Positions 40,173 through 61,581 are shown, counted from the stretch's first letter. The stretch: DNA of 64,000 nucleotides from Candidatus Altimarinota bacterium (GCA_965250085.1 OZ252287.1:704001-768000); one strand, 5' to 3'. Numbers and translations: made by a program. Notes: a model not told the origin generated them from the sequence alone.

Positions 40173-40348
40173 ATAAAATTTTTTTTAATTGTAATTTAGT
40201 GGAATAAAAAATTAAAGTGAAATAGGTTTGTTCTCTTGAGAAAACATCATTAAAAATTGAGCTTCTTTGAGAAATAAAAAATTGGACAAATATTTTTTCT
40301 TTCCTTCAAAAATCTTGTACATTGTGCTCAGAGAATTATTCAAAAACT

Positions 40349-41267
40349 ATGATCCAGATCTATCATAAAACCAACAAGCAAAAAAAGTTACAAGCAATTC
40401 AAACATTGCAAAAAAACTCATGGGTGTATGCCGAAAAACCAACAGAAGAAGACCTCCTCTATTTGCAGAAAAAATGCAAACTCGATGAAGATCTTCTGAA
40501 TGATGCCTTGGATCCATATGAAGTTCCTCGACTTGAAACAGAAAAAGGAGTGCTGTAATTTCTTTACCAGACTTCCCTATCAATCAGGTGAGAAGGTGTC
40601 CACAGTGCCATTACTGGTAGCAGTGGGGAAAGAATTTATTACCACTGTCTCCAACGCTCCTCTGCCTTTTTTGAAGAAGTGGGCAGAAAAAAAGTGTGCA
40701 TTTCCTTCAACACAAGTTTCTGAACTGTTTATTACGCTTCTGGAAGAAATTGATGTCGCATTTATGATTTTTCTTTCTCGCATCGCTCGAAATATTCGGA
40801 GTATCAGTGCAGAGATAGAGGACATTGAGAACGAAGATATTATCCGATTTGTTCGTTTTGAAGGGATTCTCAATGACCTGCTCGCGGCACTGGTCCCCAT
40901 GAATGCCATTTTGCAAAAACTTTCTCTGCACCCCATGATGGAACTGAGTGCAGAGCAAAAAGATATGGTAGAAGATTTCTATTTGAACAATCATGAGTTG
41001 CAGGAATTGAGCAAGAATAATTTCAAATCCATCGTGAATGTTCGAGAAGGATACTCCACCATTATGTCGAACAATTTGAATAAATTTATCAAAATCCTAA
41101 CGGCCCTTACCGTCTCACTCACCATTCCCACAATTATCAGCAGTATGTATGGCATGAATATTCGCCTTCCTTTTGCTGACTCTCCATTTGCATTCTGGTA
41201 TGTAATAGGAATTACAGGCGTGTTTGCTCTTTTGGTGTTAGTGATACTTCTGAAGAAGAAGTGGTAA
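40349..41267 (+). pseudogene. corA: CorA family Mg2+ transporter interrupted by a 1-bp insertion
   Basis: First part has WV...PT..D, DALDP.E.PR; second part has SNNLN..IK.LT and YGMN. Removing one A at 40557 (CTG TA[A]T TTC) restores one reading frame. Confidence 0.85.
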
Positions 41268-41297
41268 AAACCGAAGAGACATGCTCAAGAACAATTT

Positions 41298-41326
41298 TTG
41301 ACAAAAGTATTGCATAATAGTACAGT
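41298..41326 (+). promoter_or_regulatory. Putative sigma70 promoter
   Basis: TTGACA-17 nt-TACAGT, about 40 nt upstream of ATG 41367. Confidence 0.55.
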
Positions 41327-41366
41327 GCGATTCCTTATTAATATTTGCGTAATTTTTATCCTATTT

Positions 41367-43616
41367 ATGGTCGAAATCGCATCTCCAGCAGTGCCTGTTC
41401 TCGTCCCTAGTCAACATTCTAGCTTGGATCCAGGACCTAAAAAAGCTTCTTTGAGGAATCTCATTCAATTACAGAGAATTGTTGATTTACAAGCGAGGGA
41501 AGAGCGATGCTTTAGGCTTACGTATATTGAGGGGGATTCTTTACAGAATATCGCTAAAATTATTGATGAGAATGTGACTCAAGTAAGAATGTGTCTAATG
41601 AGTAGTCAAAACAAAATAAAAAATAAGATAGAGGACGTGCAAAAAGATGAAGAGTTGTCTACTTGGCTAAGCTCTCTTTTTCCTGATTTAGGCATTATCA
41701 TTAGAACAGAGCCTCAAAGCGGAATAGAACAAATCAGAAACACTTCTACAAGTGTTCCTCCAGATAGTTCAGTGGGTGTTTCTTCTATTGGAGGAACTAA
41801 TGACAGATTTTCGCAGCATGTTCATTTGTTACAAAAAGTCTTGGGACTAAGTTCTTTGATCTCTCAATGTTTATATCTTGCTTATGATGAAGGTCGGTCT
41901 CTTGAACAAATTGCCAACACCCTTTCTATCACAAAGAGAGATATAGAAATACTGATAGACAACGGTCTGGAGGTGATCAAAAGTGCTTCAGAAGATCTGG
42001 AGCAGCATCATAAAAAGCTGTATAACTGGGTAATAAAAAATATTCTAAAGCCAGAAAAAAAGAAGCGAAGTGGAAACGCTCCAGCATCTTGTTCGATAAT
42101 TCCTGAAATTTCCCTAAGCGTTGATAATACTATTGATCAAAAAAATATTGATATCCTTTCCAAAGCTGTAAAATTGACCCTTCCGAGAAAAAAGGTATTG
42201 TCTCTTCTGGTACAAGGGCACTCCACTGGAAAAATTGCGACTATATTAGATAGTACCGAATCTAGCGTATCACAACTCATTTTTCACTCTCGAAGAAAAA
42301 TAAAGGTCTACCTTGAAGACAACCTTCTTCTAGATTCAGAGTTTCACACTTGGATTGAGGAAAAAATTCTTGCTAGAAGAAAGAGAGGGAAGAAAGACCT
42401 CAAAAAGCCAGCTGCCGTAATGCCACGAATAGAATTGAAGGAAGCACTAGATGCGACAACAAATCCCACTTTGAAAATCATATTCACTCAACTCGCAAGG
42501 CTGAATCTTAAGAATGTAGATCTGGAAAATACGCTGATCACTCATGCTAGAAATACTTTAATTGATAGTCGTATCGAAGGAAGACTCATAGATAAAACAT
42601 TTGATATTAAAAAACATATAAACGATGTATGCACTCAACATGACATTCCTTTTGGGGTCTTTATCGACATAGTACTTAAAAATCCTGCCCTGCTTTTTTG
42701 TCCAACAAATACTGTTACCAATTATTCTGACTTTCGAATCTTAGTACATAATTATCGTTCCCCTCATTCCAATGCAACAAACTCTTCTCCTGTCTCTCTA
42801 AGGTCAAAGGAGGCTTCTGAGATACATACTTTTGAAGCAGGTGGAGAAGAATATGTATATATAAATGAGCAAATGCATACGGCTGTACTCTTAGCAAAAA
42901 GACTGGCGAGTGAAAAAATGCCCGTGCTTATTCTCGGTGAAACCGGAGTGGGAAAAGAAGGTATTGCTCGTCTTTTACATGAAAGTTCTGATAGAGCCCG
43001 GTTTCCATTTTCTGCCATTAATTGTTCAGCCATCCCCGCTGATCTTCTTGAGAGTGAACTCTTTGGACATAAGCGAGGATCGTTCACAGGGGCGACCTCG
43101 AACAGAAAAGGCTTATTCGAAACTGTAGAGCGCGGAACTCTCTTTCTTGATGAAATTGGAGAAATGGATCCACGAGTACAATCAAAGCTCTTGCGAGTCT
43201 TGCAAGAGAAAGAATTTCGTCCAGTTGGAAGCAATGAGGATACTAAATTTAGAGGAAGGGTTATTGCCGCTACTAATAGAGACCTTACTCAGGAGATACA
43301 ATCTCACACTTTCCGTTCCGACTTGCTCTACCGCATTGCACAATCTCATATTATTATTCCCAAACTAAAAGATAGAATTGAAGATATTGATCCCCTTCTT
43401 CGCATTTTTTTAAAACAGCTCCATCCTCAGCTCCACATCAAGGATGCAGCACGAAACAAACTCAAAGACCATTCATTCCCTGGAAATATTAGAGAATTGC
43501 AGGCTATTTTAAGACAAGCATATGTCCTTGCAACCCTTCACTCTCCTAAAAATCTAGTTATTGATGCAGAACATATAAGATTCTTCTTTGCAGAGAGCTT
43601 GGGTGAGATCTCTTAG
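41367..43616 (+). CDS. Sigma54-activator-type AAA+ protein with three N-terminal sigma-region-4/LuxR-like HTH repeats and no C-terminal HTH
   Basis: GETGVGKE, INCSAIP..LLESELFGHKRGSFTGA, FLDEIG, VIAATNRDL, FRSDLLYR, FPGNIREL; three G.S..(Q/N/K)IA..(L/I) units. Confidence 0.85.
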   Translation: MVEIASPAVPVLVPSQHSSLDPGPKKASLRNLIQLQRIVDLQAREERCFRLTYIEGDSLQNIAKIIDENVTQVRMCLMSSQNKIKNKIEDVQKDEELSTWLSSLFPDLGIIIRTEPQSGIEQIRNTSTSVPPDSSVGVSSIGGTNDRFSQHVHLLQKVLGLSSLISQCLYLAYDEGRSLEQIANTLSITKRDIEILIDNGLEVIKSASEDLEQHHKKLYNWVIKNILKPEKKKRSGNAPASCSIIPEISLSVDNTIDQKNIDILSKAVKLTLPRKKVLSLLVQGHSTGKIATILDSTESSVSQLIFHSRRKIKVYLEDNLLLDSEFHTWIEEKILARRKRGKKDLKKPAAVMPRIELKEALDATTNPTLKIIFTQLARLNLKNVDLENTLITHARNTLIDSRIEGRLIDKTFDIKKHINDVCTQHDIPFGVFIDIVLKNPALLFCPTNTVTNYSDFRILVHNYRSPHSNATNSSPVSLRSKEASEIHTFEAGGEEYVYINEQMHTAVLLAKRLASEKMPVLILGETGVGKEGIARLLHESSDRARFPFSAINCSAIPADLLESELFGHKRGSFTGATSNRKGLFETVERGTLFLDEIGEMDPRVQSKLLRVLQEKEFRPVGSNEDTKFRGRVIAATNRDLTQEIQSHTFRSDLLYRIAQSHIIIPKLKDRIEDIDPLLRIFLKQLHPQLHIKDAARNKLKDHSFPGNIRELQAILRQAYVLATLHSPKNLVIDAEHIRFFFAESLGEIS

Positions 43617-43659
43617 TGTTTTGCAAGTACGATATGTTTATATAATTTTTTATTCTTTC

Positions 43660-44367
43660 ATGGATGAAATAGTTCCTCCAGTAGTGCCTCTTTCTTCTCC
43701 TGATCAACTATCTGATAATAAAGATTCGTCAGGTATTACGCGCACTCAGAGCCTGTGGCTTCTGGCTAGGTTACAAACAGCGCTTCGTTTAAGTGATATG
43801 AGTACTAAGTGTTTGGATCTTACGTATAATGATCTTCAGTCTCCTGATCAGATTGCTTCTACTCTTGGCATAACCGTATCCCAAGTGAGGACACGGCTAA
43901 AAGACTCCCTATACACAATAGAGTTTCGGTTGGATATATTGCAGAGAGATAATAAAGATTTGTATGACTGGGTGGTGTCCGATATTCTGAATTTAGAGGA
44001 ATCTGAAGATCGAATTGGAGGTGCTGAGAGTGATATTTCCACAACTTCACTTATGAATAAGAAATCTGATTCAGATGCTGACAAAGATCCCGACAAAATT
44101 CATATCTATCAGCTTGCTCAAACTGTAGGTTTGACTTCTCTGCAACAAAATACATTGTTCTTTTTTGTGAAGGGTCTTTCCTATCAGGAAATAGCGAGCG
44201 AACTAAATACAGCATGTGGTAATATCTCACAACGCATGGTTTATATTCGAAAAAAAATAAAACGCCATATTAGGGCGAGGCGTCCATTGGATGTGGACCT
44301 CCGAATCTGGACACAAGAAAGAATCCTTGCCGCGAGAAAGAAAAAAGGTTCAGTCGTTATAAAATAG
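43660..44367 (+). CDS. Tandem two-HTH (sigma-region-4/LuxR-like) protein, paralog of the N-terminal region of the upstream gene
   Basis: QSPDQIASTLGITVSQVRTRL and KGLSYQEIASELN; N-terminus and W-containing helices shared with the upstream ORF. Confidence 0.75.
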   Translation: MDEIVPPVVPLSSPDQLSDNKDSSGITRTQSLWLLARLQTALRLSDMSTKCLDLTYNDLQSPDQIASTLGITVSQVRTRLKDSLYTIEFRLDILQRDNKDLYDWVVSDILNLEESEDRIGGAESDISTTSLMNKKSDSDADKDPDKIHIYQLAQTVGLTSLQQNTLFFFVKGLSYQEIASELNTACGNISQRMVYIRKKIKRHIRARRPLDVDLRIWTQERILAARKKKGSVVIK

Positions 44368-44511
44368 TCCTAATTTTTTATAATCCCGATATGATTCTAT
44401 TTTTGGCATCCATTGGTATTTTTTATAAAAACATAAAAAATCACCTATTCTTAGAATCAATGAAGAACGTGATACAATACAAGCATCCTTCTCCTTTTAT
44501 CCCCTTTTTTT

Positions 44512-44907: not shown

Positions 44908-45102
44908 ATGGTTATGTCAAAAAAAACATTTGCAGGCGTGCTTGTTGCTGTTGCCCTGTCCATCGGCATTTTTATGTTGAACGGTTCAAAAGACCTTATT
45001 GTGTCAATGCGCATGAGTGGATCAGGCTTACAGATCTATTCGAACGGCACTGTCATTGCTTTTTTTCCAGAATATTATCGTTATGCTGGCATTTTTTTAT
45101 AA
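44908..45102 (+). CDS. Small hypothetical membrane protein or gene fragment
   Basis: 64 aa with an N-terminal hydrophobic helix, directly after the previous gene. Confidence 0.3.
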   Translation: MVMSKKTFAGVLVAVALSIGIFMLNGSKDLIVSMRMSGSGLQIYSNGTVIAFFPEYYRYAGIFL

Positions 45103-45658
45103 AACTGTGAATGATCTTAGCTTATTAAGTCGGAAGGAACTCGAAATAGAATTAGAAGTGCTGTTCGAGCAAAACGCGAAGCTCTCCAAGGAGAATAAGA
45201 GCCTCAGAGTTCTAGCGTATGCAATTGAAGAAGTTAGAAGAAACATTGATTTCGATTACGCCCCTGAGGAGAACCAGCGTCGAGGCGGGGTCTCAAGTGC
45301 TCTTAGGACTAATGCTGAACAGCGGAGTAGGAACGCAAAAATGGCAGCCCTCTCACGGTCTCCTGAGAAGCGCAAGGCGCTTGCTCGGCAGGCTGCTCGA
45401 GTTCGATGGGGGGATGCTATTGACGCGAAAGCTGTCGGCGAACAAATTCGCAATCTTCGCCAGTTCATAAACGTCACCCAGAGCGAGTTCGCGACCGAAC
45501 TAGAGACATACTTGGGCGTTGGCAAAGCTCCATCCCAATCAACGGTAGCAAGTTGGGAAAGCGGAAAGGCGGCGCCGAGTAACGATTTCAGGCCTGCGAT
45601 TCTGGCTTTAGCCGCCGCACTCGATTATCCATTTGAAATTCAGCCTCTCATCGAGTGA
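45083..45658 (+). CDS. XRE/Cro-family HTH protein with an N-terminal coiled coil and a mobile-element-type 'ARxAAxxRW' motif
   Basis: IRNLRQ..VTQSEFA..L...SQSTVASWESGKAAP; SPEKRKALARQAARVRW; start uncertain. Confidence 0.75.
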   Translation: MLAFFYKTVNDLSLLSRKELEIELEVLFEQNAKLSKENKSLRVLAYAIEEVRRNIDFDYAPEENQRRGGVSSALRTNAEQRSRNAKMAALSRSPEKRKALARQAARVRWGDAIDAKAVGEQIRNLRQFINVTQSEFATELETYLGVGKAPSQSTVASWESGKAAPSNDFRPAILALAAALDYPFEIQPLIE

Positions 45659-45700: not shown

Positions 45701-45775
45701 TGGTGCCCCCGACAGGAATCGAACCTGTATCTAAGTCTTAGGAGGACCTTGTTCTATCCATTGAACTACGGGAGC
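45701..45775 (-). tRNA. tRNA-Arg(CCT)
   Basis: GCTCCCG...TAGTTCAATGGATAGAAC, anticodon arm AGGTC-CTCCTAA-GACTT, T-loop GGTTCGATTCC, encoded 3' CCA. Confidence 0.97.
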
Positions 45776-60468: not shown

Positions 60469-61581
60469 ATGACTTCTGCTACCAAAAGCGGTTCCTTGAA
60501 CCTCCAAAACATACTTGAAGATTTCTTCCTCATTCTGACAGAAAAAGAGCAGACGGTTATTACCAAACGCTTCGCTTTGGATGGAAAGCCAAAGAGGACT
60601 CTCGAAAGAATAGGGAAGCATTTTTCAGTGACCCGTGAAAGGATTCGCCAGATTGAAAGTATTGCACTGCAAAAACTTCGAAGAAACATTGGGAACACAG
60701 AACTTCAACAAATTAATGCACTTGCGAGAGAGATTTTGGAGTCAAATGGGGGTGTTCTGTTTGAAGGGTCATTGCTGGCAGAGATCCTCAATGTCTCACA
60801 TGTTTCTGACACTCCTGTTACAGGAAGTATTATTAAGCTAAGTCTTACTATTGATTCTCAACTTGAGAAGCTTGATACCTCAAAAGTGTTTCGTCCATTT
60901 TGGAGAATTAAAGAAGTATCGTTTGCGGAAATAGAAAAAACAGCTGGAGTAAGTTATAAAATTCTCAAAAAAGTAGGTTCTTTAACTCCAGAAAAAACAC
61001 TTTTAGAAAAAGCTCATAAGACGTTAAAGGGTGATATTCCTACTCCTCGCGTTGTTTCCATCTTATCACTCGATCGCCGCTTTAGAAAAATGGATGATGG
61101 TACTTGGGGGCTTATGGAATGGAGGCATGTAAATCCGAAAAGTATTCGGGACAAAGCCAATATCATCCTTAAAAAAACTGGAAACCCTTTGCATTTTATT
61201 GATATTGCGAATCAAATTTCACAAACCGGGTTTGATAAAAAGGTTGTTACAGTGCAAGCGGTGCACAATGATTTGATTCGTTATCCAGAGTTTGTACTCG
61301 TTGGAAGAGGGATGTATGCGCTTTCTGAATGGGGATATGAGCCTGGGACAGTAGCGGATGTGATTGCAAAAATATTGAAGAAAGATGGACCTATGAAAAA
61401 ACGTGATATTGTCACAAATGTTTTGAAACAGCGAGATGTAAAGCTGGGCACTATTTCTCTGAACTTACAAAAAAATCCTGCGTTTATACGAGTTGGGCGT
61501 GCCGTGTATGACTTTGAGCAAAGCAAGTGGAAAGTCCCGAAGCGTGGGCGAGGACGTGCAAAGATGAAAAACTTTGTCTAG
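60469..61581 (+). CDS. CPR-conserved protein: sigma70 region-4 HTH plus C-terminal winged-helix (HARE-HTH/RNAP delta-like) domains
   Basis: [24 protein letters not shown]; PLHF..IA, VHN.LI...FVLVGRG.YAL.EWGY.PGTV. Confidence 0.8.

Follow-up and report, generated by a model that had tools for sequence, protein, structure and literature searches.

Sigma region 4-like repeats joined to an enhancer-binding-protein-type motor: a putative two-gene transcription-control module in a bacterium without detectable sigma-54

Bacterial enhancer-binding proteins (bEBPs) of the NtrC/NifA/PspF type provide the closest described counterparts to a gene pair, ORF1 and ORF2 (open reading frames 1 and 2), that we analyze here in a window of 64,000 nucleotides (nt), the whole stretch of DNA under study, from a Candidatus Altimarinota bacterium (GCA_965250085.1 OZ252287.1:704001-768000). 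Passages of a survey of 842 genomes report that such activators and sigma-54 co-occur almost perfectly, the exceptions having a substituted loop; the same passages associate an intact GAFTGA-type loop with sigma-54 dependence and a broken one with sigma-54-independent relatives, and they name TyrR, PhhR, DhaR and HupR as homologs of the latter kind (PMC3162934). Caulobacter NtrC is another sigma-54-independent homolog, according to part of a preprint (bioRxiv 10.1101/2023.06.06.543975), and a section of a published survey counts sigma-54 as one of the families that the Candidate Phyla Radiation (CPR; PMC6744442) lacks.

ORF1 carries a complete motor with an intact loop, fused to modules from the other sigma family, in a single-contig genome in which sigma-54 is not detectable. 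We propose, with a confidence that falls a little short of even, that ORF1 and ORF2 constitute a functional, sigma-54-independent and lineage-specific module of two genes that controls transcription in a Peregrinibacteria-like member of the CPR, and in which ORF2 would be a motorless modulator.

Repeat units and motor of ORF1 and ORF2

ORF1 and ORF2 lie on one strand with 43 nt between them, a CorA gene on one side and a small membrane-protein gene on the other. The two genes and their units, which resemble sigma region 4 (sigma4), are as follows.

41367..43616, plus strand: ORF1 (P0001), 749 amino acids (aa), coordinates with stop codon; a bEBP AAA+ domain preceded by three sigma4-like units and a linker.
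43660..44367, plus strand: ORF2 (P0002), 235 aa, coordinates with stop codon; N-terminal peptide, unit B1, an acidic linker and unit B2.
41298..41326, plus strand: candidate sigma-70-type promoter-like site TTGACA-17-TACAGT, 10/12 matches, 41 nt 5' of the ORF1 ATG.
41367..41399, plus strand: N-terminal peptide MVEIASPAVPV, common to ORF2 (MDEIVPPVVPL), 6/11 residues identical.
41451..41705, plus strand: unit A1, aa 29-113, a five-helix sigma4-like module, net charge -1.
41802..42047, plus strand: unit A2, aa 146-227, sigma4-like, net charge -2; Sigma70_r4 E value (E) 2.7e-5.
42132..42371, plus strand: unit A3, aa 256-335, followed by the basic tail ARRKRGKK, net charge +7; Sigma70_r4_2 E 4e-4, GerE 7e-4.
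43741..43989, plus strand: unit B1 of ORF2, aa 28-110, net charge -1; closest to A2 (33% identity).
44089..44328, plus strand: unit B2 of ORF2, aa 144-223, with a basic tail behind it, net charge +12; closest to A3 (33% identity); Sigma70_r4_2 E 1.5e-5.

A first-pass annotation, made by a model from the sequence alone, had described five sigma-region-4-like units, three in ORF1 and two in ORF2, and this description is borne out by Pfam, by profile comparison and by structural models. Pfam places Sigma70_r4 in two stretches of ORF1 (E 9.8e-11) and Sigma70_r4_2 at 269-312 (E 1.8e-8), and finds each of the two families in two stretches of ORF2. Taken singly, every unit has Sigma70_r4 or Sigma70_r4_2 as its top family (E 1.5e-5 to 0.02); one of the five passes the curated cut-off alone, as do the whole ORF1 and ORF2 proteins. 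Among solved structures, a profile of the five units matches the sigma4 domain of SigW (6jhe) at E 4.8e-6, followed by DesR, NarL, VraR and sigmaE region 4, and within the genome itself it also matches a short sigma factor in region 4 (E 2e-6). GerE remains below its curated cut-off of 23.5 bits (21.3 bits in ORF1, 15.5 bits in ORF2). Since the solved NarL and DesR domains match the unit profile, the sigma4-like units and the LuxR/GerE helix-turn-helix (HTH) probably have similar folds.

AlphaFold2 models, built from a shallow paralog alignment, consist of five-helix units with a predicted local distance difference test score (pLDDT) of about 70-89, joined by disordered linkers; as in sigma region 4, a helix precedes the HTH. 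A Foldseek search of the ORF2 model against the PDB gave no match at E 0.001 or better, the ranking alone being informative; the top matches were all sigma factors, isolated sigma4 domains or LuxR-type proteins, with target-normalised template modeling (TM) scores of 0.66-0.67 for the isolated sigma4 domains, 3hug_K and 2h27_A.

The paralogy of the two genes, which the first-pass annotation had read from their similar N termini and last repeats, is equally clear. Residues 12-228 of ORF2 align with 129-340 of ORF1 at 31% identity (E 2e-26), and an out-of-register match pairs ORF2 1-231 with ORF1 1-235 at 27% identity (E 5e-13). Because ORF2 aligns to ORF1 in two registers, the units can be regarded as repeats. 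Pairwise comparison gave E values of 1e-4 to 2e-15 for six of the ten unit pairs; B1-B2 was not significant (E 0.17) and the other three pairs gave no match. The common motif is L..L.L-(8)-CL.L.Y..G.S...IA..L..T...V........KIK, then L..W....IL, with a Lys/Arg tail after the latter in A2, A3 and B2. The charge is split, being strongly basic in A3 and B2, which close the two arrays, and about neutral in A1, A2 and B1.

Pfam found no sigma region 2 (Sigma70_r2) in ORF1 or ORF2, so neither is a sigma factor. It also found no Response_reg domain in either, and PhyR_sigma-like reached 13.6 bits against a cut-off of 27. The longest ORF1 frame opens at TTG 41298, with ATG 41367 as an alternative start. 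The latter appears the likelier because the similarity to ORF2 begins exactly there and because the promoter-like site occupies 41298-41326; the two proteins and the DNA directly upstream become alike exactly at ATGs 41367 and 43660. It should be noted that sigma-70-type sites are no commoner in the whole region than in shuffled sequence, and the site upstream of ORF1 is a candidate only.

Downstream of its units, ORF1 consists of a linker and the AAA+ motor.

42402..42761, plus strand: linker, aa 346-465 (120 aa), no family matched.
42762..43586, plus strand: AAA+ sigma-54-interaction domain and lid, aa 466-740, from Pfam and the NifA, NtrC1 and PspF structures.
42936..42959, plus strand: Walker A, GETGVGKE, aa 524-531.
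43077..43094, plus strand: L1 loop, GSFTGA, aa 571-576, a natural variant of GAFTGA.
43140..43163, plus strand: Walker B, LFLDEIGE, aa 592-599.
43311..43334, plus strand: R-finger region, FRSDLLYR, aa 649-656.
43479..43502, plus strand: sensor II region, PGNIRELQ, aa 705-712.

The names Walker A, Walker B, R-finger and sensor II are applied here according to their usual definitions. Sigma54_activat (PF00158) matches residues 500-662 with an E value of 1.7e-63 (213.7 bits against a cut-off of 20.2), AAA_lid_14 matches 669-738, and every motif is intact. The Fis-type HTH (HTH_8) was not found in ORF1 by Pfam, and the protein stops 11 residues past the lid, in agreement with the first-pass description of a complete bEBP AAA+ domain without a Fis HTH. 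The closest solved relatives of the motor are NifA, CapR, FlrA, NtrC1 and PspF; models of NifA, RtcR and NorR match the central part of ORF1 only, all below their full-length cut-offs. The loop is of an ordinary kind: 60 of 119 non-self matches to ordinary bEBPs have GAFTGA and 42 have GSFTGA. It is neither deleted nor substituted, unlike the loops that serve as criterion for the TyrR/DhaR/HupR type in passages of the survey cited above (PMC3162934). The fusion is not an artefact of a single assembly, since Logan contigs from three runs of one sample, possibly the window's own source, reproduce 40200-44500 with zero differences.

Sigma-54, relatives and surroundings of the locus

The genome is a single contig of 1,368,807 bp, scored 97.1% complete. 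Four sigma-54 models, PF04552, PF04963 and PF00309 for the DNA-binding, core-binding and activator-interacting domains and TIGR02395 for the full length, gave no match in it at E up to 1 (0.001 for PF04552), which upholds the suspicion of the first-pass annotation that rpoN is lacking. Nor was a divergent sigma-54 found in the genome by an unfiltered profile of short sigma-54-like proteins, by tblastn, by phmmer or with an RpoN-box pattern. The strict -24/-12 consensus occurs twice (1.2 expected under a first-order Markov null for the genome), and two looser forms occur 18 times (12.8 +/- 2.4 expected) and 10 times (6.1 +/- 1.5 expected); no such site lies beside ORF1 or ORF2. The sigma set comprises one RpoD-like and four short sigma-70-family factors, with five region 2 sites, none of them at ORF1/ORF2.

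A CPR/Patescibacteria lineage fits the markers that we could read from the genome and its class. The closest named homologue of the enolase (75% identity) is labelled Candidatus Peregrinibacteria, and ribosomal protein L30 was not found in the genome. The flap region of rpoB contains 2 to 22 in-frame TGA codons in some of the class (G048, G040, G047, G030 and G052) and none in this genome, which fits the known recoding of stop codons in part of the lineage.

The motor is not an isolated oddity, as about 3-4% of the sampled class and phylum genomes hold such motors without detectable sigma-54. Strong PF00158 matches (E 1e-20 or better) were present in 13 of 301 sampled class genomes and in 12 of 401 phylum genomes, this genome being counted in both. 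Matches to the sigma-54 DNA-binding domain (DBD) were seen in 2/301 class and 3/401 phylum genomes, all but one below the curated cut-off, and in none of the motor holders; for the remaining 12 holders of the class, TIGR02395 did not rise above noise of 14 and 11 bits, and it matched nothing in five holders of the phylum. Every one of the 11 class copies examined retains the aromatic-Thr core of the loop. So do 8 of 10 copies fetched from the phylum; two more failed the Walker-motif filter, so that their loops were not read. Several of these motor genes lie on contigs of 150-960 kb. Contamination may account for three copies, which are on 3-8-kb contigs. The CPR pattern breaks the co-occurrence rule given in passages of the 842-genome survey (PMC3162934), and the retention of intact motors without sigma-54 across the phylum is a more general and more testable point than the fusion in a single genome. 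The first-pass annotation had neither this phylum-wide recurrence nor the restriction of basic charge to the last units.

Architectures vary among these motors, which include AAA+ with HTH_8, AAA+ alone, and long unassigned N- or C-terminal parts. Among the holders with large contigs are G483, with two copies on 963 kb, G432, with two on 683 kb, and G317, with a contig of 153 kb. Their loci, G432:C1 (L061, L062), G483:C1 (L063, L064) and G317:C5 (L059), encode PspF-like proteins of 340-457 aa, AAA+ with or without HTH_8, with GAFTGA or GSFTSA loops, in Patescibacteria genomes without a sigma-54 match. In one ortholog pair, from G272 and G282, the proteins are 84% identical with a ratio of nonsynonymous to synonymous substitution rates (dN/dS) of 0.09-0.12, which indicates purifying selection on this motor. 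These two genomes belong to one genus; in each the bEBP-type gene (L022 in G282, L067 in G272) adjoins a Der GTPase gene, and the Walker A motifs, GKVGTGKE in one and GRVGAGKE in the other, are unusual for the family. No conserved neighbor was found at the 11 class bEBP loci other than this Der GTPase in the two related genomes. Two further ORFs of the genome under study, 545 and 884 aa long, match PF00158 weakly, at 37.6 and 32.8 bits.

Two class genomes, G104 and G141, contain short, highly divergent sigma-54-DBD-like proteins of 332 and 356 aa (L010:1441-2436 and L011:1231-2298, both minus strand). They are 26% identical to each other (E 8e-34), match the sigma-54 DBD weakly (31 and 21 bits) and have the RpoN-box-like sequences RRAVSNYR and AERTINKY. 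A profile made from them detected them in these 2 of the 301 class genomes only, and neither has a strong bEBP motor; orphan halves of a sigma-54 system therefore occur separately in the class. ORF2 was considered as a cryptic sigma-54-like factor of this sort and rejected (hhalign probability 1.3% against the short proteins).

The search for homologs of the same architecture, which the first-pass annotation had recommended, returned the repeat part from ORF1 and ORF2 only. The N-terminal 480 residues of ORF1 matched only ORF1 itself among 7,996 scored candidates (411-1311 aa) of 5.8 billion proteins, and an exhaustive phmmer search of ORF2 against 1.84 billion representatives gave ORF2, ORF1 (E 1e-22) and P0003 (E 5e-4), which we take as a chance match because it is a dockerin and carbohydrate-binding protein. 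The genome has no further paralog, and one of 40 relatives searched (G018) matches ORF1, in the AAA+ part only. A scan of genome contigs with ORF1 yielded three ordinary bEBPs (Crocinitomicaceae, Shewanella and Bacillus), again in the AAA+ part only, and the Protein Atlas returned for ORF2 generic stand-alone sigma4 clusters only. The AAA+ part, for its own part, matched all 8,000 of 8,000 scored candidates, the best among the matches listed being response-regulator-type activators (46-52% identical); in none of the 120 matches listed, the query excepted, does Sigma70_r4 stand beside AAA+. The sequence searches and full-text literature searches found neither a family nor a publication with a sigma-70-region-4/sigma-54-activator fusion, and the latter gave no report of such activators in CPR. 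The architecture thus appears undescribed, as had been supposed, whereas its component families are known.

The AAA-domain tree, which had been suggested as a way to find a donor, points to the same class. In the trees, the ORF1 motor has as its sister and nearest AAA+ relative a G085 protein of 435 aa, to which it is 49% identical over 253 aa, with a FastTree support of 98 (131 rows) and a Shimodaira-Hasegawa-like approximate likelihood ratio (SH-aLRT) support of 94 in IQ-TREE (44 rows, comprising all 11 class copies and 32 of the 119 other matches picked at random). In GC content at third codon positions (GC3) and in codon-use scores, all three ORF1 segments and ORF2 deviate by no more than about 1.3 standard deviations from the genome's 561 long ORFs. 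Codon use is native, and the pair is not a recent import.

The neighbors of ORF1 and ORF2 are housekeeping genes, with no secretion genes among them. The CorA-type Mg2+ transporter gene directly 5' of ORF1 is split over two overlapping plus-strand frames, 40322-40558 and 40500-41267, the N-terminal 78 aa corresponding to profile positions 3-47 and the 255-aa remainder to positions 61-290. The frameshift is real, because the Logan contigs carry the identical sequence, and CorA would thus be a pseudogene or a gene that needs frameshifting to be read. About 650 nt downstream of ORF2, at 45017-45658 (plus strand), lies a gene for a 213-aa protein with a C-terminal XRE-like HTH, recognized via PHROG regulator families only, which adjoins a tRNA gene at 45704-45775 (minus strand). 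A 370-aa protein at 60469-61581 (plus strand) has Sigma70_r4 at 23-71 (E 1e-13) and HARE-HTH at 227-288; it has no sigma region 2 at this locus and is another sigma4-bearing protein of the window that is not a sigma factor. Signs of phage or mobile elements were not seen at the locus, and viral contigs contained no ORF1 relative, the PHROG matches being generic AAA+ and sigma families. Two low-depth contigs of 151 nt from a run of a second sample and study (X5) are identical to parts of ORF2, 43835-43985 and 44059-44209, and the same or a very close strain may thus occur elsewhere.

Proposed mode of action and its alternatives

Sigma-54 being undetectable in the genome, the motor must have another target. 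In the mechanism that we propose, ORF1 would be an ATP-driven ATPase of the enhancer-binding-protein type, presumably assembling into rings and hydrolyzing ATP, in which three sigma4/LuxR-type HTH modules, arrayed at the N terminus, have taken the place of the usual C-terminal Fis-type DNA-binding domain. The basic last module, A3, would most likely bind DNA, and the near-neutral A1 and A2 would most likely contact protein. ORF2 would have arisen by tandem duplication of the array (B1 corresponding to A2 and B2 to A3), lacking the motor; sharing the DNA sites or partners of ORF1, it could modulate ORF1 as a competitor or co-factor. Sigma-70-family holoenzymes and sigma4-like modules are the most plausible targets of the motor, an unrecognised factor being another candidate. 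Activity of these motors would mean that they have a target other than sigma-54, and more forms of ATP-dependent transcription control would then exist than are known at present.

Several observations weigh against such a module. With a single genome known to carry the repeat part, there is nothing against which to measure its conservation, and DNA binding by the units is suggested by fold and charge only. Between the units and the motor, aa 345-500 matched no Pfam family and the unit profile found no fourth unit there; in an AlphaFold2 model of ORF1 1-500, pLDDT is below 50 across 337-500. A look-up among public runs listed no RNA run as holding ORF1/ORF2 sequence, and a search for DNA repeats or operator-like motifs around the genes gave nothing outstanding. 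Finally, the correlation between loop and sigma-54 published in passages of PMC3162934 means that an intact GSFTGA argues for a sigma-54-like partner, and none was found.

Among the alternatives, the one that survives best, though we consider it unlikely, is that the units are sigma mimics or decoys. They would dock on the beta-flap of RNA polymerase or on an anti-sigma factor rather than on DNA, either tethering the motor or freeing extracytoplasmic function (ECF)-type sigma factors in a PhyR-like partner switch, with ORF2 as a free decoy. This would fit the better match of the units to Sigma70_r4 than to GerE, the helix ahead of the HTH and the three of five units that are not basic; the unit profile matches region 4 of one of the genome's short sigma factors, of which there are four besides the RpoD-like one. 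However, no flap- or anti-sigma-binding surface is apparent in the sequence, the Arg/Lys-tailed units A3 and B2 resemble DNA binders, and the sigma2-sigma4-receiver arrangement of PhyR is not seen here. A co-fold of ORF2 with the genome's own RpoB flap (residues 760-960, 29-row alignment) scored 0.00, which is evidence neither way.

A second alternative, to which we attach rather little weight, keeps the motor on its usual substrate: it would remodel a sigma-54-like factor that is too divergent to be recognized or that comes from another cell. A fully canonical motor, GSFTGA included, is what such a partner would call for, and the short proteins of G104 and G141 show that factors of this kind can sit at the edge of detection. 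Against this, every search for sigma-54 in the genome came back empty, the -24/-12 motif is not clearly enriched, and both genomes with the short proteins fall outside the motor holders, ORF2 itself bearing no recognizable likeness to these proteins.

It is doubtful that the locus is an evolutionary leftover, in which a motor acquired from a sigma-54-bearing bacterium was fused by chance and is now functionless. The architecture is a singleton, and the split CorA gene upstream shows that the region tolerates damage. However, the 2.25-kb frame is open with every motor motif intact, codon use is native, the nearest relative is from the same class, comparable motors are under purifying selection in sigma-54-less relatives, and dead genes would be expected to be lost from a reduced genome of 1.37 Mb.

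Of similarly low probability is a more ambitious version of the module, a self-contained switch of the enhancer type in which sigma4 modules have taken the place of sigma-54. Here ORF2, which combines two sigma4-like domains with an acidic spacer and the N-terminal peptide common to ORF1, would serve as a pared-down factor for docking on polymerase and DNA. The GSFTGA loops of the ORF1 ring would take hold of that peptide, as happens to region I of sigma-54 in the canonical system, and Patescibacteria in general would have retained GAFTGA-bearing motors because of their action on a substrate other than sigma-54. If true, it would represent a second, undescribed way of coupling ATP hydrolysis to the initiation of transcription in bacteria.

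CPR bacteria are often episymbionts, and the motor is sigma-54-competent by sequence, yet the host-directed idea of the first-pass annotation, here taken as export of the proteins to act on the sigma-54 polymerase of a host bacterium, found nothing in its favor and deserves hardly any credence, as the N termini MVEIASPAVPV and MDEIVPPVVPL show neither the hydrophobicity nor the basic charge of a signal peptide, the neighboring genes are not secretion genes and a 749-aa ring ATPase is an unlikely cargo. The missing N-terminal secretion signal, the native codon use and the purifying selection on the same kind of motor in sigma-54-less relatives indicate an endogenous role.

Comparison with known systems

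PhyR, a precedent for a decoy that joins a sigma-derived domain to a signalling domain, is made up of sigma2, sigma4 and a receiver, whereas ORF1 and ORF2 have sigma4-like units only, with an AAA+ motor in ORF1. Each unit resembles, by profile and model, region 4 of ECF sigma factors (SigW sigma4, 6jhe; sigmaE region 4 on -35 DNA, 2h27) and the LuxR/GerE HTH (NarL, DesR). The units differ from these in being tandemly repeated, in having an extra C-terminal helix with the conserved L..W....IL, in not being basic in three of five cases and in the lack of region 2.

With bEBPs of the NtrC/NifA/PspF type (NifA 9qq6, Aquifex NtrC1 1ny5/1ny6, PspF 2bjw), ORF1 has in common the AAA+ domain, the lid, the motor motifs and the GAFTGA-type loop. 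It differs from them in lacking both a sensor domain (receiver, GAF or PAS) and the Fis HTH at the C terminus; its N terminus is instead the triple sigma4-like array with its linker, and its genome is without detectable sigma-54. The G085 protein (L013:1216-2523, minus strand, 435 aa), from another family of the same class, likewise has no Fis HTH and stops just after the lid, and its genome, like this one, has no sigma-54 match. However, its 175-aa N terminus contains no sigma4-like unit and has no similarity to ORF1, there is no ORF2-like neighbor, and its loop is GAFTGA.

TyrR, PhhR, DhaR and HupR are bEBP-type AAA+ proteins that act without sigma-54, which ORF1 would have to do as well. 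Caulobacter NtrC is said to have no GAFTGA loop. In TyrR, PhhR, DhaR and HupR the loop is deleted or broken, whereas ORF1 and most of the CPR copies have kept it intact.

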